Origin: Candidatus Omnitrophota bacterium
GTDB taxonomy: Bacteria > Omnitrophota > Gorgyraeia > Duberdicusellales > 4484-171
DNA length: 64,000 nucleotides
Direction of reading: 5' to 3'
Assembly: GCA_018826075.1 (NCBI GenBank)
Contig: JAHKAJ010000024.1
Coordinates: 145,694 to 209,693, forward strand
Shown: positions 175 through 8,400 of the stretch, one piece after another
Layout of the letters: each line of letters begins with the position of its first letter
How positions within the stretch are numbered: the first letter of the stretch is position 1
The notes under the pieces: generated by a model
Databases searched by the model: none
Told to the model about the DNA's origin: nothing
What the model saw: only the letters and a program-made list of their open reading frames with translations
Made by a program: the position numbers and the translations under genes

Positions 175-1833
175 CTATCGTAACAAAAGGTAAAAAAGTA
201 TACCCATACCTAAAAGACACCAGGCCAAATAAGTAGACAAAACTCCGTTGTGCAAATAACTTAGAGCGCGATTAAAACCAAAGGTGATCTTACTGCTCAC
301 TTCATAAATATCAAAGATTTTTTTCGCAGCTAACCGGTAAATAATTTTTAGAATGCCGATCTCCTGAACAGTATTGTAAAATTCTGTTCCCGAAATCCGC
401 ATCTGGGGATTATTTTTTAGGTCTTCACCGCCGATAAAAGGATCAGTTTGCCGCAGTTTAGCCACCCGGCCCAGAAAATAAATCAACAAACCGATTACTA
501 TGCTGATAATAAGTAAAATCGTTGCCAAACCGGCACTCCAAAATCCGAAAAATCGTATCGGTTCTAAAATAACCGGAAAGATAAAATGTTTAAGGGGAAC
601 CGCCAAAGCAAAAATTCCGAAAATTAAACATAAAAAGGCTAAAATGACTCCCGGCAGCCACATCAAAATCCCGACCTCCCGGTTTTCTTTCTTGGCCGCT
701 AATTTCCGACCTTGAGCCGGCTGGCCTAAAAATACCGCCTGCAGTAATTTCATAAAACTAGCTAAAGTCAAAGCACTGCCAAACATAGCTGAAATCAGCC
801 AAACTACCCAAAGCTTGCCGCCGGTTTTTGCAGTTTCCAGAATTCCCTGATAGACCATCCATTTAGAAACAAAACCATTAAATGGCGGTATTCCCGAAAT
901 AGCAAAGGCAGCAATTAAAAAAGTAACGAAAGTAACCGGCATGTATTTGGCTAATCCGCCCAACGAATCAAGGTTGGTGGTTTTAGCCTGCTTTTCAACT
1001 GACCCGGCCGAAAAAAACAGACAGGATTTATATATGGCGTGATTTAACATATGAAAAAGCCCGCCGGCAATACCGATGGGGTTGCCGGTGCCGATTCCCA
1101 AAACCATATAGCCGACCTGGCTCACGGCATGATAGCCAAGCAGCCTTTTAAAATCATGCTGGATGAGAGCCATCATCACTGCCGCTACAATAGTGAGACT
1201 GCCGATAAACATTAAAAAGGTATTCATCCCGGAATCAAGACGGAACATCTCCAGGGAAATCCGGGCTAAAAAATATATTCCCAAAAGTTTATCCAAAGAT
1301 GCCGGTAAATACGCTGTAACCGGTGCTGGTGAATCCTCAGCGGCATCAGGAACCCAGGTATGAAAAGGCATTGCTCCGGCTTTGGCAAAAGCTCCGGCTG
1401 CCAGGCAAAGATAAGCAATCACTGCCAGTTTAGAAGTCAAGGGTATCGAAATCAGATCCATTTCAAACAAACCGGTGAGTTTCCAGACAAGACTGATCCC
1501 TAAAAGCATTAAAACATCAGTTCCGCCGATTAAGATAAAAGCCTTCTTGGCCGTAGCCGGCGTATTCTCGTTTTTGCCAAAACCGATCAAAAGATACAGC
1601 AGCAGCCCTAAAAATCCCCAAAAAACCATAAATAAAATCAAGTTGTTGGCAAAAACTGCGCCTAAAGAAGCGATTAGAGTGAGGCCTATGTAGAGGTAGT
1701 ACTGAGGGGTCCTTTTTTCTGAACGCATATACCCCATAGAATAGACAGTCACCAGGATAGAAAAAAACCAGACGAATATCCCCACAAATATCGATAAATT
1801 GTCAAAACGGAAATATTCCTGAAACAAACTCAT
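175..1833 (-). CDS. Antiporter-like membrane subunit of an energy-converting hydrogenase (NuoL/NuoM/NuoN/MnhD/HyfB family), 552 aa.
   Basis: It is a multi-TM protein. Conserved NuoL/HyfB-like blocks are present (WVPDA...SPAPVTAYL, GYHAVSQVGYMVLGIG, FHMLNHAIYKSCLFFSAGS). Its start overlaps the stop of the hydrogenase large subunit gene (1830..1833). Confidence 0.8.
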   Translation of the reverse strand: MSLFQEYFRFDNLSIFVGIFVWFFSILVTVYSMGYMRSEKRTPQYYLYIGLTLIASLGAVFANNLILFMVFWGFLGLLLYLLIGFGKNENTPATAKKAFILIGGTDVLMLLGISLVWKLTGLFEMDLISIPLTSKLAVIAYLCLAAGAFAKAGAMPFHTWVPDAAEDSPAPVTAYLPASLDKLLGIYFLARISLEMFRLDSGMNTFLMFIGSLTIVAAVMMALIQHDFKRLLGYHAVSQVGYMVLGIGTGNPIGIAGGLFHMLNHAIYKSCLFFSAGSVEKQAKTTNLDSLGGLAKYMPVTFVTFLIAAFAISGIPPFNGFVSKWMVYQGILETAKTGGKLWVVWLISAMFGSALTLASFMKLLQAVFLGQPAQGRKLAAKKENREVGILMWLPGVILAFLCLIFGIFALAVPLKHFIFPVILEPIRFFGFWSAGLATILLIISIVIGLLIYFLGRVAKLRQTDPFIGGEDLKNNPQMRISGTEFYNTVQEIGILKIIYRLAAKKIFDIYEVSSKITFGFNRALSYLHNGVLSTYLAWCLLGMGILFYLLLR

Positions 1834-3041
1834 TTTATACCTTTTGTACGGGCGGCAAATTTGCCGCCCCTACTTTTAATTTTCTCGGTTTTAGCTTGTG
1901 AGAGCCTAACTAAATCCTCACCATTATAAAGTTTTTTACCCTTTTGATTAACCACAGCCATTCTTTCAGTACAACAGTAACAAGGATCGATTGCCGCCAG
2001 GATTATAGTTGCATCGGAAATCGTCTCGCCGACCACAGTCGCTTTATAGGTCGGCAGATTCATAAAAGTTGGGGCTCGTATTTTATGGCGGGCCGGGCGG
2101 TTAGTCCCGTCGCTTTTTACATAGTGAAAACATTCACCCCTTGGCGCTTCGATCTGGCCGATACCTTCTCCGGGAGGTATGTTTTTAATATTAGCGTCGA
2201 TTTCAGTATCCGGCAAGCTTAAAAGACAGCGCTTAACCATGTCTATCGATTGAAAAGTCTCTAAAATCCTTACTACCGCCTTGTCGAAAACATCTCCGTT
2301 GTCAGTGACAATGATATCCCAATTTAAACGGTCATAGGCTCCGTAAGGGCAATCTTTCCTCAAATCCCTGGCGATCCCCGAAGCTCTAGCAGTAGGCCCT
2401 AAGGCACAAAAATTAATTGCCTCCTCTTTAGTTAAAACCCCTACTCCTTTTGTCCGGGCATGCAAAACCGGGTCATCAATGACTGCTTTTTTAAGCATTT
2501 CTAAAGTCGGGATGATTGAATCGATTTTTTTAATCACCCCTGGAATATCTTCTTTCTTGATATCCCGCCTGACGCCACCGGGTTTAAACATGGCGTAATT
2601 ATTCCGATTACCGGAAAGTATTTCCATCACATCAAGTATTTCTTCGCGCAATTTCCAAGCCCACATGTAAACTGTATTGTAACCGAGAAAATGCCCGGCT
2701 AAACCCAACCAGAGAAGGTGCGAATGAATGCGTTCGCCTTCAGCAATAATCGTGCGGATGTATTTGGCTCGCAACGGCACTTCTAAACCGATCACATCTT
2801 CAATTGCCCGGGTGTAAGCATAAGGATGGCTGGTTGAACAGATACCGCAAATTCTTTCTACGGCAAAGGTAGACTGGTCAAAAGTTTTTCGTTCAGAAAG
2901 TTTTTCAATACCCCGGTGGTTATAACCGATTTGGACATCAATATCGATCACAGTCTCCCCGTCAACCGTCAGGGTAAAAAATTCCGGTTCCTCCTGTAAA
3001 GGATGATACGGGCCAATCGGCACTATGGTTCGTTTTCCCAT
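1830..3041 (-). CDS. [NiFe]-hydrogenase large subunit, group 4 (NuoD/EchE/HycE-C-terminal-like). The likely true start is the internal Met (MGKRTIVPIGPYHP).
   Basis: The N-terminal L1 motif RICGICSTSH and C-terminal L2 motif DPCYCCTER (the Ni-Fe ligating cysteines) are both intact, so this is a true hydrogenase, not a Nuo/Ehr paralogue. PIGPYHP matches the NuoD-like N-terminus. About 35 aa lie C-terminal to the DPCxxCxxR motif. The ATG at 3039-3041 overlaps the NuoC-like stop by 1 nt. Confidence 0.85.
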   Translation of the reverse strand: MGKRTIVPIGPYHPLQEEPEFFTLTVDGETVIDIDVQIGYNHRGIEKLSERKTFDQSTFAVERICGICSTSHPYAYTRAIEDVIGLEVPLRAKYIRTIIAEGERIHSHLLWLGLAGHFLGYNTVYMWAWKLREEILDVMEILSGNRNNYAMFKPGGVRRDIKKEDIPGVIKKIDSIIPTLEMLKKAVIDDPVLHARTKGVGVLTKEEAINFCALGPTARASGIARDLRKDCPYGAYDRLNWDIIVTDNGDVFDKAVVRILETFQSIDMVKRCLLSLPDTEIDANIKNIPPGEGIGQIEAPRGECFHYVKSDGTNRPARHKIRAPTFMNLPTYKATVVGETISDATIILAAIDPCYCCTERMAVVNQKGKKLYNGEDLVRLSQAKTEKIKSRGGKFAARTKGIK

Positions 3042-3514
3042 TATAAACCTCGATCCCGAATTGAAGAATCGTCCCACTCTTTATAGTCACGTCTCAACGG
3101 ATAAACCCCTTGCGGCCATTCATCAGGCAAAAGCAGCCGCTTTAACTCCGGATGGCCTTTGAAGTTTACCCCCAGCATTTCGCAGATTTCCCGTTCTATC
3201 CAGTTAGCTCCTTCGAATATCGGAGCTAAAGAATCTATCTCTAATTTGTTCTTTAAAAGTTTTACCCGAAATGAAATCAGGAAATTGATTTCATCAAAAG
3301 TGAAATGATAAAGAATCTCTATGTGCTTATGGGTATCCAGGCCGCTGGCAATATTAAACCGGGCACCCAGATTTTTAAAAACATAGGTAGCAATAACCAC
3401 TAAAGCCTGGGGTTTGATCTCGATGTAGACCCGCTTGGGAGATTTATCAAAAACTTCCAGAATCTCCCCCTTAAAACGTTCACCTATATCTTTTAAAATA
3501 TCGCTTCGATTCAT
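3041..3514 (-). CDS. NuoC/EchD-like hydrogenase subunit (30 kDa subunit family), 157 aa.
   Basis: Its size and position between the NuoB-like and NuoD-like genes fit this family. Conserved C-terminal region: ANWIEREICEMLGVNFKGHPELKRLLLPDEWPQGVYPLRRDY. It is translationally coupled on both sides. Confidence 0.7.
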   Translation of the reverse strand: MNRSDILKDIGERFKGEILEVFDKSPKRVYIEIKPQALVVIATYVFKNLGARFNIASGLDTHKHIEILYHFTFDEINFLISFRVKLLKNKLEIDSLAPIFEGANWIEREICEMLGVNFKGHPELKRLLLPDEWPQGVYPLRRDYKEWDDSSIRDRGL

Positions 3515-3945
3515 TTTTTTTCTGGTTTAGCACTAAGTTTTTCTATTAATTTTACCACTCCGGCGATAATTGCTTCCGGCTTAGGCGGACAGCCTGGAAT
3601 ATATACGTCTACCGGAATAATCTTATCGACCGGCAAAGGGCAGTTATAACTGTGGATAAACATACCTCTGGATAAAGAGCATTCGCCGATCGCCACCACC
3701 ACACAAGGTTTTGGCATCTGTTGGTAAACCTGTTTGATCCGGGGAATGCATTTGCGATTAGCTGAACCGGTGACTAAAAGCACATCGGCATGCCGTATAC
3801 TGCCGGCTAAAAGCATGCCGAATCTTTCCACATCAAACCGGGGAGTCAAACAATCAAGTATCTCAATATCGCAATTATTACAACTTCCGGTAGAAAGATG
3901 AAATACCCAGGGTGACTTTAAAAGTGCTTTTAAGGTTATACTCAT
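3511..3945 (-). CDS. [NiFe]-hydrogenase small subunit, NuoB/EchC-like (proximal 4Fe-4S cluster), 144 aa.
   Basis: The NuoB-family cysteine pattern is present: GSCNNC...(R)KC...GEC...GCPP. Its size and operon context fit a group 4 hydrogenase. Confidence 0.85.
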   Translation of the reverse strand: MSITLKALLKSPWVFHLSTGSCNNCDIEILDCLTPRFDVERFGMLLAGSIRHADVLLVTGSANRKCIPRIKQVYQQMPKPCVVVAIGECSLSRGMFIHSYNCPLPVDKIIPVDVYIPGCPPKPEAIIAGVVKLIEKLSAKPEKK

Positions 3946-4865
3946 AATCCTTTAAGAGCCAGGAAAACCGCCATCATGGCCAGTATGGTCATCGGCCCCC
4001 AGAAAAATCGCATCGCCTGGTCGATCCTAACCCGGGGGTTAGTGTTGCGAATAACCGTTATTAAAGCTACCAATCCCAAATATTTTAATATTCCGTTTAT
4101 CCAGTGGGCCCCGCTCAGGCGAAAACCACCCATAAAGAGAATCATTATAAAGAAAGGCAGGACAAACAACAACATATTTTTCATCAGTTTATATACCGCT
4201 AAAGGGGTACCGGAATATTCGATCAGTGGCCCGCCGACGATTTCGGTCTCGGCTTCCGGAATATCAAAAGGAACCAAAGCTAACTTTGCCTGAACGCACA
4301 TCAGGATAACCAAAAAAGCCAAAAAACCCGACCAACTTCCTAAAATTACGCCGTTCTGAACCTGATAAGTCAAGATCTCGCCTAGGCGCAGAGTAAACCC
4401 ACCTTGAATAACCGGAACTAAAATAGCCAGTAAAAACGGTAATTCATAACTTAGCACCAGTTTCATCTCCCGTGATGAACCGATACTAGCCAGGGGGTTT
4501 GCCGAGGCAAATCCGCCGATAATTATACTTAAGGAAGGTAAGACTAAAAGATAAACTACCACTATGATATCCCCGATAAAGGTCCTCTGAGGATTAAGAC
4601 AGTTAAACCAGAGTATCGTCGAAACCAAAATAACACTGCCTAAACCCAAAAGCGGCGCCGCTAAAAAACTAAACTTTGAAGCTCCCTTAGGAACCATAGT
4701 TTCTTTACCGAGCAGTTTAACTAAATCGATCAACGGTTGTAAAACCGGCGGGCCAACCCGGTATTGAACCCGGGCAGTGACCTTACGGTCAACCCAGCTG
4801 GCGAAAAGCCCGATTAACGCCGTTAAAAAAAATCCGAAAATAATCAGATAAATTAAATAAATCAT
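3942..4865 (-). CDS. NuoH/EchB/HyfC-like integral membrane subunit, 307 aa.
   Basis: It is a multi-TM protein with the position and size of EchB/HycD. Conserved region: PFDIPEAETEIVGGPLIEYSG. Confidence 0.8.
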   Translation of the reverse strand: MIYLIYLIIFGFFLTALIGLFASWVDRKVTARVQYRVGPPVLQPLIDLVKLLGKETMVPKGASKFSFLAAPLLGLGSVILVSTILWFNCLNPQRTFIGDIIVVVYLLVLPSLSIIIGGFASANPLASIGSSREMKLVLSYELPFLLAILVPVIQGGFTLRLGEILTYQVQNGVILGSWSGFLAFLVILMCVQAKLALVPFDIPEAETEIVGGPLIEYSGTPLAVYKLMKNMLLFVLPFFIMILFMGGFRLSGAHWINGILKYLGLVALITVIRNTNPRVRIDQAMRFFWGPMTILAMMAVFLALKGL

Positions 4866-4872
4866 TTATCGC

Positions 4873-5391
4873 TTAAGCCTTTTGGCGAACCCAATGAGTA
4901 GAATGAACTACCAGGTTATCGCCGACTAAAAAAGTATTTTCATTAAGTTCAACATCCGGACCAACCAGCTTCAATGCCCCGTGAGAGCAGGACTTTATAC
5001 AAAGCGGTTCAGTCGCTTCATTACGCCGATTGAGACAAAAATCACAGTTATGGTTAAGGTAAGGAACATGTTCCGGATAAATAGCCCCGTAAGGACAGGC
5101 ATAGGAACAGGATTTACAACTCACGCAGCGCATGTTATGTCTGGTCAATAGCTTATCGTTCTCCTTTTGCTGTTCCAAGGCCTCGTAGGGGCAAGAATTA
5201 ACGCAATGCGGCTCATCGCAGCGGCGGCAGACTAAAGCATAGGTTGCCAGCTCGACCACCGAGATTATACCGTTGTTGATCGGCTCCTGGCTGTGATAAA
5301 AATAACTGCATTGGATATCGCAGTCCTGGCATTTTCCGGCGGCGCAGATATCCAAATCCACAAACAGGCGTTTATCTTTAGTCGAATCCAT
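4873..5391 (-). CDS. Poly-ferredoxin-like 4Fe-4S electron-transfer subunit (HycB/HydN/NuoI-like), 172 aa.
   Basis: It has 16 Cys arranged in about four cluster-binding motifs (CxxCxxCxxxC, CRRCDEPHCVNSCP, CVSCKSCSYACP, CDFC...CIKSC). Confidence 0.75.
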   Translation of the reverse strand: MDSTKDKRLFVDLDICAAGKCQDCDIQCSYFYHSQEPINNGIISVVELATYALVCRRCDEPHCVNSCPYEALEQQKENDKLLTRHNMRCVSCKSCSYACPYGAIYPEHVPYLNHNCDFCLNRRNEATEPLCIKSCSHGALKLVGPDVELNENTFLVGDNLVVHSTHWVRQKA

Positions 5392-5394
5392 AAA

Positions 5395-6219
5395 TCAATC
5401 CCAAATACTAGGAAAATTTTTTATTTTGTCATAGGTAAATACCGGACCATCTTTACAGGCATAATAAGTTCCCAGCCGACAATGCCCGCATTTACCGATT
5501 CCACAAGACATGTTTTTTTCCATCGAAAGATAAATATTTTTTTCTTTAAATCCCAATTCCAGCAGTTTTTTAGTTGAAAATTTCATAGCGATCGGCGGGC
5601 CGCAGACAACCGCGATAGCCCTGGGGTAATCCATATCTAAATCATCCAGGATCGTAGTGACTACGCCTACGTTACCCTTCCAGGTGGGATCACCCTTATC
5701 CACAGTAAGCCTTAAGTTTAAATCATCTCTTTTGGCCCAGCCGTCTATTTCATTTCGGTACAATAATTCCTGGGGGTTTTTGCAGCCGCCGCGAAAGGAT
5801 AATTTTTTAAACTCACCGCTGCGAGAAAAAAATTCATACATCAAACTGCGCAACGGCGCCAGGCCGCAGCCGCCGCCGACCACAGCGATCTCTTTGCCTT
5901 TGAACTCGTCTATCGGGTAACCAGCGCCAAAAGGGCCCCTTACGCCGATAGTGTCGCCTTTTTTCAGCTCATGGATCCGGGCGGTGACTTTACCTACTTT
6001 CATCACCGTCACTTCCATTTCCTCGCGCAAAGAAGGCCGTGAAGACGGCGTAAACGGAGCCTCACCGACCCCGGGAACAGTCACCTCGATGAATTGGCCG
6101 GTTTTAAAACCAAACGGTTCGGCCGGCCGAAAACGAATAGTCTTGATAGTCGGGGTTTCGGTTATTGCCTCTAAAACTTTTGCTTCGATCGAACGGTAAG
6201 GATTATCGACTTTTTGCAT
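5395..6219 (-). CDS. FAD/NAD(P)H-binding oxidoreductase with a C-terminal 2Fe-2S cluster (PyrK / sulfhydrogenase gamma HydG / AsrB family), 274 aa.
   Basis: Ferredoxin-NADP-reductase-like fold motifs are present (RFRPAEP...GQFIEV, GGGCGLAPLRSL). The C-terminal CGIGKCGHCRLG...C cluster motif is typical of PyrK/HydG/AsrB. Confidence 0.75.
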   Translation of the reverse strand: MQKVDNPYRSIEAKVLEAITETPTIKTIRFRPAEPFGFKTGQFIEVTVPGVGEAPFTPSSRPSLREEMEVTVMKVGKVTARIHELKKGDTIGVRGPFGAGYPIDEFKGKEIAVVGGGCGLAPLRSLMYEFFSRSGEFKKLSFRGGCKNPQELLYRNEIDGWAKRDDLNLRLTVDKGDPTWKGNVGVVTTILDDLDMDYPRAIAVVCGPPIAMKFSTKKLLELGFKEKNIYLSMEKNMSCGIGKCGHCRLGTYYACKDGPVFTYDKIKNFPSIWD

Positions 6220-7237
6220 TGTCTACTAATTTTTTTAAAACTTTTCTAATATCAATCTTAGCCGGACAGGCTGATATACAACGGCCACATCCAGTGCAGG
6301 CAAATTCAGCTGCTACTTTGGGAAAAAAATCAAACTTTTTCTCAAAACGATTGCGCAGGCGCATCCAAAGTTTTTCGCGGGGATTAGCTCCGCCGGCAAC
6401 CCGGGCGAAATCTTTGATCATACAAGAATCCCAGATTCTTAAACGTTCCATTTGAGCATCGTTTTGCTGGTCATACAAAAGAAAACAATGGCAAGTAGGA
6501 CAAATCGTATTACAAGCCCCGCACTCAACACAAGCCTCAGCTTCCTCACTCCAGATCTCGCTCTCAAAGCCTTTTTCAACTACCCCTTTAAAAGACTCCT
6601 GGTTGGACAGGCCATTGCTTTTTACCTGAACCTCTACCTCACGGAATATTTTTTCCCGTCTGCGGTTACGGGTAGACATCAGGTCTTCCCGGGGCTGACG
6701 GAAAAACAAAGTATATTTTTCCACGATCCTCTTGCCTTTGCTCGAGCCGATCTCCACTAAATACCCCTCATCTACCGAAGAAAGGTTAAGGTCAAAATTC
6801 ATCTGGGGATAAGGTTTTAAACCCAAAGCAGTACAAAAACAACTCTCGATCACTGAAGTACAATCAGCCGAAATGACTAGGTTAGCCTCACGCAGCTTAA
6901 GATAGAACGGATCTTGATAATCATGGTTACTAAAAACATAGTCCTGAATCTTAAAACCTTTTAGATCACAGGCTTTTACCCCGACGATGGCAAAAGGTCT
7001 TTCAAGCCTTTGGGGGATTTTTTGGCTAAAGCCGGAAGCTACCCGTTCGCGGGCTCTAAAGAAAAAAGACTTTAACGGTTCAAAAGCCCGGACTTCTCCC
7101 ACCAGATAGTCAGCGCCGGCAGCAGTAAACTTCTGGTAAAAACGCTGCTGACCCTTTTTCACCGGGACAAAAACTTCGTAATCTTTCTTTAAACTTACTA
7201 AAAATTTTGAAAAATTTTCCGAAGAGATGTAATACAT
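6203..7237 (-). CDS. Iron-sulfur subunit of the AsrA / sulfhydrogenase beta (HydB) family, 344 aa.
   Basis: It has two CxxCxxCxxxCP ferredoxin motifs (CVECGACNTICPTCHC and CTGCGRCISACPAKID). Its size and pairing with the PyrK/AsrB-like gene immediately downstream fit this family. It is the first gene of the operon. Confidence 0.7.
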   Translation of the reverse strand: MYYISSENFSKFLVSLKKDYEVFVPVKKGQQRFYQKFTAAGADYLVGEVRAFEPLKSFFFRARERVASGFSQKIPQRLERPFAIVGVKACDLKGFKIQDYVFSNHDYQDPFYLKLREANLVISADCTSVIESCFCTALGLKPYPQMNFDLNLSSVDEGYLVEIGSSKGKRIVEKYTLFFRQPREDLMSTRNRRREKIFREVEVQVKSNGLSNQESFKGVVEKGFESEIWSEEAEACVECGACNTICPTCHCFLLYDQQNDAQMERLRIWDSCMIKDFARVAGGANPREKLWMRLRNRFEKKFDFFPKVAAEFACTGCGRCISACPAKIDIRKVLKKLVDNAKSR

Positions 7238-7281
7238 ACCGGTTTTTATTTTCAGCGTATTTTTTCGGTTATCAGCTTACT

Positions 7282-7299
7282 TTGTGAATAAAATCACAA
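7282..7299. promoter_or_regulatory. Perfect palindromic operator cTTTGTGAataaaaTCACAAAg (TGTGA-N6-TCACA, CRP/FNR type). It also fits a Rex-type site, TTGTGAA-N4-aTCACAA, with one mismatch.
   Basis: Direct reading: an 8-bp perfect inverted repeat with a 6-bp AT spacer. Its centre is about 53 nt upstream of the first hydrogenase-operon start codon (7237). It lies between the predicted -10 element and the start codon. Confidence 0.45.
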
Positions 7300-7314
7300 A
7301 GCAAATTAGAGGCT

Positions 7315-7343
7315 AAATTAACATAAATGCCCCTGGTTGTCAA
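7315..7343 (-). promoter_or_regulatory. Sigma70-like promoter for the hydrogenase operon: -35 TTGACA (7338..7343) and -10 TAATTT (7315..7320) with a 17-bp spacer.
   Basis: Read on the minus strand. The consensus -35 and spacing are exact. It sits in the only sizeable intergenic gap (7238..7353), between the LPS operon stop and the hydrogenase operon start. Confidence 0.4.
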
Positions 7344-7353
7344 GAATAATTAT

Positions 7354-8400
7354 TCAGGTTTTGGCTAAAAGCAAAAAGGCTTTTTCGGCCACCTGTTCAG
7401 GGGTGATGTTTTGCAAGCAAAGAAAACCTTTTTGACAATTATGGGCAAGACAAACCAAACATCCGGCGTCCCCGTGCAGATAAACCGACGACTTGCCTTG
7501 AGGCATCCAGCGTAACGGCGAAAGACCGGGATCTTTACGCCCAAAAATCGAGATTACCGGCACATTCAAGCTGGCAGCAATATGTACTGGTCCAGAATCG
7601 TTAGAAATAAACAGGGCCGCCCGCTTAAACAAAGCTCCCAGCTCAGGGATATTGAGTTTTCCCCGAAAATCAATAATTTCATTCTCCTTTACCAACCGGT
7701 CAGCAAACCCGCTCTCTTCCTTAGAAGTGACCGCGATCATCGGTAAATCGACCTTTGCTTTAAGGATCTTAACCAACTCCGAAAAATAGTTTTCCGGCCA
7801 GCGTTTCGAAGGGCAAGACGCTGAAGGATGAATAACTATAAATCTAGTATTTTTAGCTATTCCAGCCTGATTAAGCCTTTCATCCACCCCTGTTTGGGCC
7901 TGGGAAGAAACCGGAAAATAAATCTTTTTATCCTCGACTGGTATATTTAAATAGCGCAAAATATCTAAATTATATTCCAACTCATGTTTCTTGCCTTCCT
8001 GTTTGCGATGGGGTATTCGGTCAGTAAGCAGCCAACCCATTTTTTTTATCCAGCCTACCCTTCTGGGTATTCCGGCTAAAAACACAATCAAATGTGCTCG
8101 GTCAGTCGGATGAAGAACAATAGCTAAGTCAAATTTTTTGGTTTTTAAAGCCGCGGCGAATCTTAAAATCCCCCAAAGGCCTTTTTCCCGGATCTGCTTA
8201 TCGCAAACAATGACCTCATCCAAATAAGGATTACCTAAAAGAACATCCTTGGTATAAGGCCGGCAGATAAAAGCGATATGGGCTTTAGGATAAGCCAGCC
8301 GTAAATTTTTTATCACCGGAGTAGAAAGAATAACATCTCCTAAACGGTCAGTCCTGACAATCAATATCCGTTTAAACTGGTTATTCATAACTTTTAACAA
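7354..8400 (-). CDS. GT9 family glycosyltransferase (ADP-heptose:LPS heptosyltransferase, RfaF/WaaF-like), 348 aa.
   Basis: The N-terminus ILIVRTDRLGDVILSTPVIKNL and the spacing of the ...GNPYLDEVI block are typical of heptosyltransferases. The GT-B C-terminal half includes NDSGPVHIAASLNVP. Confidence 0.75.
   Translation of the reverse strand: MLKVMNNQFKRILIVRTDRLGDVILSTPVIKNLRLAYPKAHIAFICRPYTKDVLLGNPYLDEVIVCDKQIREKGLWGILRFAAALKTKKFDLAIVLHPTDRAHLIVFLAGIPRRVGWIKKMGWLLTDRIPHRKQEGKKHELEYNLDILRYLNIPVEDKKIYFPVSSQAQTGVDERLNQAGIAKNTRFIVIHPSASCPSKRWPENYFSELVKILKAKVDLPMIAVTSKEESGFADRLVKENEIIDFRGKLNIPELGALFKRAALFISNDSGPVHIAASLNVPVISIFGRKDPGLSPLRWMPQGKSSVYLHGDAGCLVCLAHNCQKGFLCLQNITPEQVAEKAFLLLAKT

Follow-up and report, generated by a model that had tools for sequence, protein, structure and literature searches.

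A predicted Rex operator behind the promoter of a membrane-bound [NiFe] hydrogenase operon in an Omnitrophota genome

A perfect palindrome located behind a sigma70-type promoter in the 64 kb stretch of Omnitrophota DNA analysed here (hereafter the window) is very probably, on sequence evidence, the operator of the NADH/NAD+-sensing repressor Rex, through which a hydrogenase operon would be controlled. A Rex operator at an NAD(P)H-linked hydrogenase had been suggested by the first-pass annotation of this DNA, and the suggestion is now supported by the conservation footprint of the site, by the enrichment of similar boxes upstream of orthologous genes, by the linkage of these boxes to rex genes, and by the presence of a Rex gene in the host genome. 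The control system itself is well known, and the site described here is a clear but ordinary example of it, with a mechanism that is not of a new kind.

The site lies in a 116-nt gap (positions 7238-7353), the only one to separate the glycosyltransferase genes from those for the hydrogenase. The upstream neighbour is a GT9 heptosyltransferase gene (7354..8400, minus strand; Pfam Glyco_transf_9), the last gene of an LPS-core cluster and outside the regulated unit. Its stop codon (TGA, 7356-7354 on the minus strand) is 10 nt ahead of the -35 element, and no terminator-like site was found on the minus strand between this stop codon and the promoter. On the other side of the gap, the first gene of the hydrogenase operon starts with an ATG at 7237 (minus strand). 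No Shine-Dalgarno-like sequence was detected ahead of this ATG (window 7238-7250, aaaaaccggtATG), nor ahead of the corresponding start codon in the related locus L006 (gatactaATG). All of the genes in the window (1-64000) are on the minus strand and the GC skew is uniformly negative; besides the hydrogenase and LPS-core genes, the window carries topoisomerase I, leu/TCA-type genes, the ribosomal protein clusters, rpoBC, nusG, and ligA.

The promoter of the hydrogenase operon has a -35 hexamer TTGACA at 7338..7343 (minus strand), which was read from the sequence and is identical at 6/6 positions in L006. It is followed by a 17-nt spacer, accaggggcatttatgt, in which a TG at 7323-7322 creates a TGn-type extended -10 element, TGtTAATTT, at 7315..7323 (minus strand; hexamer at 7320-7315; 9/9 in L006). 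The hexamer TAATTT matches TATAAT at only 3/6 positions, which is why the TTGACA-17-TAATTT promoter is absent from the list produced by a generic promoter scan. We nevertheless consider the promoter credible because it combines a perfect -35, a 17-nt spacing, a TGn extension, and conservation. Transcription is predicted to start at 7307..7309 (minus strand), given the position of the -10 element and the usual distance of 6-8 nt. A second promoter-like match, TTCACA-18-AAAAAT, is present at 7259-7288 (minus strand). Its -35 is formed by the right half-site of the operator, and L006 has the AAAAT of this match in the corresponding place. If this second promoter is real, its -35 would be occluded by Rex.

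The palindrome, CTTTGTGAttttatTCACAAAG, is 22 bp long (7280..7301), perfect, and made up of 8-bp arms around a 6-nt centre (CTTTGTGA-N6-TCACAAAG), with 13 nt separating it from the end of TAATTT. Within it, the predicted Rex operator core, TTGTGATTTTATTCACAA (7282..7299), begins 15 nt past the promoter and sits at approximately +9 to +26 relative to the predicted start. The core matches TTGTGA-N6-TCACAA at 12/12 positions and has one mismatch to the Rex consensus TTGTGAANNNNTTCACAA, at box position 7, where a T is found instead of an A. This consensus has been given for Rex operators of Firmicutes, Thermotogae, Actinobacteria, and Thermus (Ravcheev et al. 2012, as cited in PMC6391272). The first-pass annotation had described a single intergenic gap between the LPS and hydrogenase genes, the arrangement of TTGACA-17-TAATTT followed by a 22-bp perfect palindrome, and one mismatch to TTGTGAA-N4-TTCACAA. 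The gap is indeed the only one, the coordinates and description of the promoter and palindrome are exact on the minus strand, and motif comparison returns the same single mismatch. Its placement of the palindrome at about +7 to +28 likewise agrees with our reading, becoming about +8 to +29 if transcription starts approximately 7 nt past the -10 element.

The motif TTGTGA-N6-TCACAA has one match in the 64 kb window, compared with none in 100 dinucleotide shuffles. The shorter motif TGTGA-N6-TCACA, with up to one mismatch allowed, has two matches compared with 0.71 expected in the window, and its sole exact match is at 7283-7298. Weaker matches to the Rex half-sites (9-10/12; e.g., at 5030, 28285, and 41457) were rejected as candidate sites, as they are no more frequent than expected by chance and fall within genes or at ribosomal protein genes. 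A scan of approximately 74 kb of the host genome revealed no further good Rex box besides 7282-7299.

The first gene of the operon (6203..7237, minus strand; Pfam Fer4_22) encodes a 4Fe-4S protein homologous to the beta subunit of sulfhydrogenase I, with a match to the Pyrococcus furiosus sulfhydrogenase 1 subunit beta (PDB 9nez_B) at E 3.4e-44. It is followed by a gene for an FAD/NAD(P)H-binding subunit (5395..6219, minus strand; Pfam FAD_binding_6, NAD_binding_1, and DHODB_Fe-S_bind) that is homologous to the gamma subunit of sulfhydrogenase I (PDB 9nez_C, E 6.1e-58). The remainder of the operon in the window (175..5391, minus strand) encodes, according to Pfam, a ferredoxin-like protein and NuoH-like, NuoB-like small, NuoC-like, large, and antiporter-like subunits. 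The [NiFe] large subunit (1830-3077, minus strand) is closest to the P. furiosus Mbh alpha subunit (6cfw_L, E 3.7e-90) and its translation contains both Ni-binding CxxC motifs (RICGICSTSH and DPCYCCTER), while the antiporter-like subunit (Pfam) is encoded at 175-1833 (minus strand). Outside the window the operon continues with genes for Mrp subunits, HycI, and HypA (Pfam). [quoted passage not shown] The enzyme belongs to the 'Mbh-Mrp-oxidoreductase' type of group 4 hydrogenase, which is known from metagenomic surveys (bioRxiv 10.1101/765248), and Mrp-linked group 4g hydrogenases have been reported in Omnitrophota (PMC8542988). The homology of the beta/gamma-like subunits to an NAD(P)H-linked sulfhydrogenase favours the Rex reading of the palindrome.

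To compare the gap with that of a relative we used L006, in which the gene order is shared and the first gene product is 74% identical to that of the window. Together with the -35 (6/6) and the extended -10 (9/9), the Rex core is fully identical in L006 (18/18), compared with 38/83 positions (46%) in the remainder of the gap. The outer C/G pair of the 22-mer differs in L006, which reads gTTTGTGA...TCACAAgc. This variation suggests that the functional unit is the 18-bp core.

A wider scan, using one genome per species, yielded 80 loci with an orthologous first gene (41-68% identity) from several phyla. Boxes were counted in 75 of the 80 loci, namely those in which the 5' end of the orthologous gene is present (752 kb in total), with a threshold of at least 11/12 matches to the Rex half-sites and with the GTGA or GTTA variant allowed. 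The 800 nt preceding the orthologous gene account for 7.4% of the sequence and hold 22 of the 26 boxes that passed this threshold (binomial P = 1.6e-21). At least 30 related loci have an orthologous box. Where no rex gene is adjacent, the loci share the layout of the window, with TTGACA, a spacing of 17-18 nt, a -10 element (often preceded by TGn), and a box 2-36 nt past the -10. The promoter-box layout of the window recurs in eight other lineages: a perfect TTGACA is found in the same relative place in L020, L028, L029, L030, L034, and L009-L011, and a TGn-type extended -10 at the same spacing in L029, L030, and L009-L011. Rex control of the orthologous operon is predicted across MAGs labelled Omnitrophota, Atribacterota, and Spirochaetota. 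Both the box and a neighbouring rex gene are absent from many orthologous loci that are more distantly related, which suggests that Rex control is lineage-specific. In the MAGs labelled Spirochaetota, boxes of the TTGTTAA-N4-TTAACAA type are found upstream of the orthologous hydrogenase gene (L038, at 5462 and 5909; L045, at 2273; L079, at 5202 and 5902), with no adjacent rex; TTGTTAA-N4-TTAACAA is the published clostridial Rex box (PMC5367854).

In approximately 22 loci, a Rex gene of about 210 codons (PF06971 + PF02629) is located directly ahead of the hydrogenase operon. Rex proteins from the related loci match Thermus Rex (3ikt) at E 9e-50. In these rex-headed loci, one or two boxes overlap the -10 element or the start of the rex promoter, and L009-L011 have the box between rex and the operon. 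Where boxes are paired in rex-headed Omnitrophota loci, they are exactly 21 bp apart (start to start), equivalent to two helical turns (L015, 5267/5288; L018, 3943/3964; L025, 771/792; L033, 232/253; L041, 5305/5326).

The window itself does not encode such a regulator. A tblastn search with Rex against the window gave no match, and PF06971, PF00027, and PF13545 are absent from it (Pfam on called genes over approximately 1-55.6 kb and a Pfam scan of the rest), which agrees with the statement in the first-pass annotation that genes for Rex, CRP, and FNR are lacking there. Protein searches with a profile of 13 Rex proteins and with the Atribacterota-type Rex each listed at least 120 near relatives of the query, none of them traceable to the window organism. 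The same annotation had recommended a search for rex outside the window, and this search located a gene on L089, the contig that carries the operon of the window plus 10 kb beyond it (one difference in 11,833 nt), so the genome does encode a Rex, whereas the annotation had named the absence of such a regulator as grounds for refuting its regulatory reading. The host rex gene (L089 18760-19401, on the same strand as the operon) encodes 213 amino acids and belongs to the same gene cluster, approximately 7 kb past position 1 of the window. Its product scores 247 bits against NCBIfam NF003995 (cut-off 126) and 236.5 bits against NF003993 (cut-off 217), and matches Rex chains in the PDB at E ~1e-45.

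The host rex gene stands between a HypC-HydE-like fusion gene and hydG. This stretch (L089 17442-20898, approximately 5.6-9 kb beyond window position 1) places [FeFe]-hydrogenase-type maturases directly after a [NiFe] cluster with HycI and HypA. The fusion protein, of 443 amino acids, has a HypC-like N-terminus (residues 1-76) and a HydE-like radical-SAM part (230 bits, under the HydE cut-off of 254.6), and HydG is clear (441.8 bits). It is unusual to find a HypC-radical-SAM fusion beside a [NiFe] enzyme. Ahead of the hypC-hydE-like gene, a gap of 174 nt that separates it from hypA contains a GC-rich inverted repeat, CCCCGCCCTTTTGG ... CCAAAAGGGCGGGG (L089 17318-17376), which may mark the end of the hydrogenase transcript and is not followed by a T-run. 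Autoregulation of rex is common elsewhere. It is not evident in the host, as no recognisable box lies ahead of rex on L089 and the terminator-like repeat parts hypA from hydE-rex-hydG.

The palindrome could also be read as a site for a regulator of the CRP/FNR family, which would activate or repress the operon on sensing cAMP, oxygen, or some other signal. The TGTGA-N6-TCACA core is exact at 7283-7298. CRP-family proteins occur widely, and another part of the host genome may encode one. However, neither the window nor the adjoining 10 kb contains a CRP/FNR-family gene, and the regulator gene that travels with the box in approximately 22 related loci is rex. CRP/FNR activator sites are centred near -41.5 or -61.5, and the FNR core is TTGAT-N4-ATCAA. 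The site in the window is downstream of the conserved -10 element, with the centre of the box at about +17 relative to the conserved promoter and at about -39 relative to the weaker TTCACA-18-AAAAAT (both starts being predicted). The FNR core is unmatched and its GAT/ATC half-site is absent, so of the 'exact CRP/FNR-family consensus' claimed in the first-pass annotation the CRP part stands and the FNR part does not. The conserved motif also includes the outer TT/AA of the Rex box, and relatives read TTGTGAA-N4-kkyACAA or TTGTTAA-N4-TTAACAA, both of which are published Rex variants (PMC6391272, PMC5367854). Judged from the motif and its neighbourhood, a CRP site is unlikely, with a probability that we would put as very low, and an FNR site does not fit the sequence. 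Under another explanation, the palindrome would be a functionless chance feature of an AT-rich spacer and the operon would be transcribed by read-through from the LPS genes. The lack of a terminator between the GT9 gene and the gap and the shared orientation of the window genes are consistent with this, but it is effectively refuted by the comparative sequence data: the core is kept at 18/18 positions in L006 in a gap that is otherwise 46% identical, and boxes are enriched upstream of the orthologous gene (P ~1e-21). Chance also produced no match in 100 shuffles.

With a start at the predicted place, the transcript would include the palindrome, which might act mainly as a 5'-terminal mRNA hairpin that affects stability or translation, with its likeness to an operator being secondary. 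The UTR has a folding energy of -17.2 kcal/mol (z = -3.46 compared with shuffles) with a 12-pair stem, and complementarity outside the 18-bp core is kept via different bases (C-G in the window, G-C in L006). Against this, the arms show no covariation across 34 distinct boxes (76.5% of cells paired, compared with 79.9% in shuffles), and box positions 6/13 and 7/12 are often unpaired. It is the sequence that is conserved and not the pairing, with G3, G5, A15, and C16 invariant across boxes. A hairpin/covariation model of the box family was rejected since the half-sites vary independently, and their failure to covary suggests that the box is conserved as a target for a protein and not as a hairpin. 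Furthermore, the boxes in rex-headed loci overlap the -10 or the start and are therefore partly untranscribed, and the hairpin in the window is far from the start codon, which it leaves uncovered. A search of 6900-7700 against Rfam gave no match. Overall, we consider a principal role as an RNA hairpin to be improbable. The complementary flanks in the window (7277-7306) and in L006 (9934-9960) would give an RNA stem of 10-12 pairs, and other lineages keep only a single T/A flank outside the core. In the lineage of the window, the transcribed operator may double as a stabilising 5' hairpin, as a smaller and secondary role.

Returning to Rex, we infer that the repressor binds the palindrome and is released from it by NADH. 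When the NADH/NAD+ ratio is low, a Rex dimer on the operator would block transcripts from this promoter. Bound Rex would also stop any read-through out of the LPS genes, which we propose because no terminator parts the gap from these upstream genes. As NADH accumulates, Rex would bind NADH and leave the DNA and the operon would be transcribed, and the induced hydrogenase would let the cell shed surplus reducing equivalents in the form of H2. The cognate Rex would be the one encoded in the same genome, approximately 11.5 kb downstream of the operator, between the HydE-like gene and hydG. EMSA work in Caldicellulosiruptor bescii shows that Rex binds upstream of, and represses, hydG and rex itself as well as the genes of its [NiFe] and [FeFe] hydrogenases (PMC6391272).

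This annotation gives an uncultured phylum a well-supported regulatory prediction, namely that the membrane-bound hydrogenase of this Omnitrophota bacterium is switched on at a high NADH/NAD+ ratio. The recurrence of the predicted control in several candidate phyla supports a coupling between the complex and the pool of pyridine nucleotides through the sulfhydrogenase-like module. It also offers a clue to what the oxidoreductase module of this hydrogenase type does. It is conceivable, though on balance we doubt it, that recurrent Rex control marks the 'Mbh-Mrp-oxidoreductase' as an NADH-relief valve, which would oxidise NAD(P)H, evolve H2, and use or conserve an ion gradient via Mrp. If this were true, the regulog would be a direct handle on the physiological direction of the complex, a direction that we infer here.

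No Rex regulon for Omnitrophota is described in the literature that we searched, and the predicted system closely resembles those known from other bacteria. Both the known Rex operators (ROP sites) and the site in the window are 18-bp inverted repeats with the same half-sites, differing at box position 7, which is T in the window and A in the known consensus. The regulators share a winged-helix N-terminus and a Rossmann NADH domain, and in both cases the operators overlap, or lie just downstream of, the core promoter of targets involved in redox balance. The host differs in that rex is not beside the site. The closest parallel is found in C. bescii and C. saccharolyticus, where Rex boxes likewise precede membrane-bound [NiFe] hydrogenase genes, hydG is in the same regulatory neighbourhood as in the host, and NADH relieves Rex repression (PMC6391272). 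Rex binding, predicted in the window organism, has been shown by EMSA in Caldicellulosiruptor, and the [NiFe] enzyme there is of the ferredoxin-dependent Ech type, whereas that of the window is an Mbh-Mrp enzyme with a sulfhydrogenase beta/gamma-like NAD(P)H module.

The palindrome also shares its 16-bp core, TGTGA-N6-TCACA, with the Escherichia coli CRP site. The flanks are TT/AA in the window and AAA/TTT in the E. coli site, and unlike the latter, the site in the window is, relative to the conserved promoter, in a position typical of a repressor and has no linked CRP-family gene. The box variants of its relatives follow the Rex consensus and not the E. coli CRP consensus. Closer to the host, the rex-first operons of other Omnitrophota (e.g., L014, L015, L019, and L041) contain the orthologous operon, the same box family, and a TTGACA-type promoter, as in the window. 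In these operons rex is the first gene and two boxes 21 bp apart cover the -10 or the start; this overlap with the rex promoter probably makes the operons autoregulated. The lineage of the window and L006 instead have a single box directly before the beta-subunit gene.
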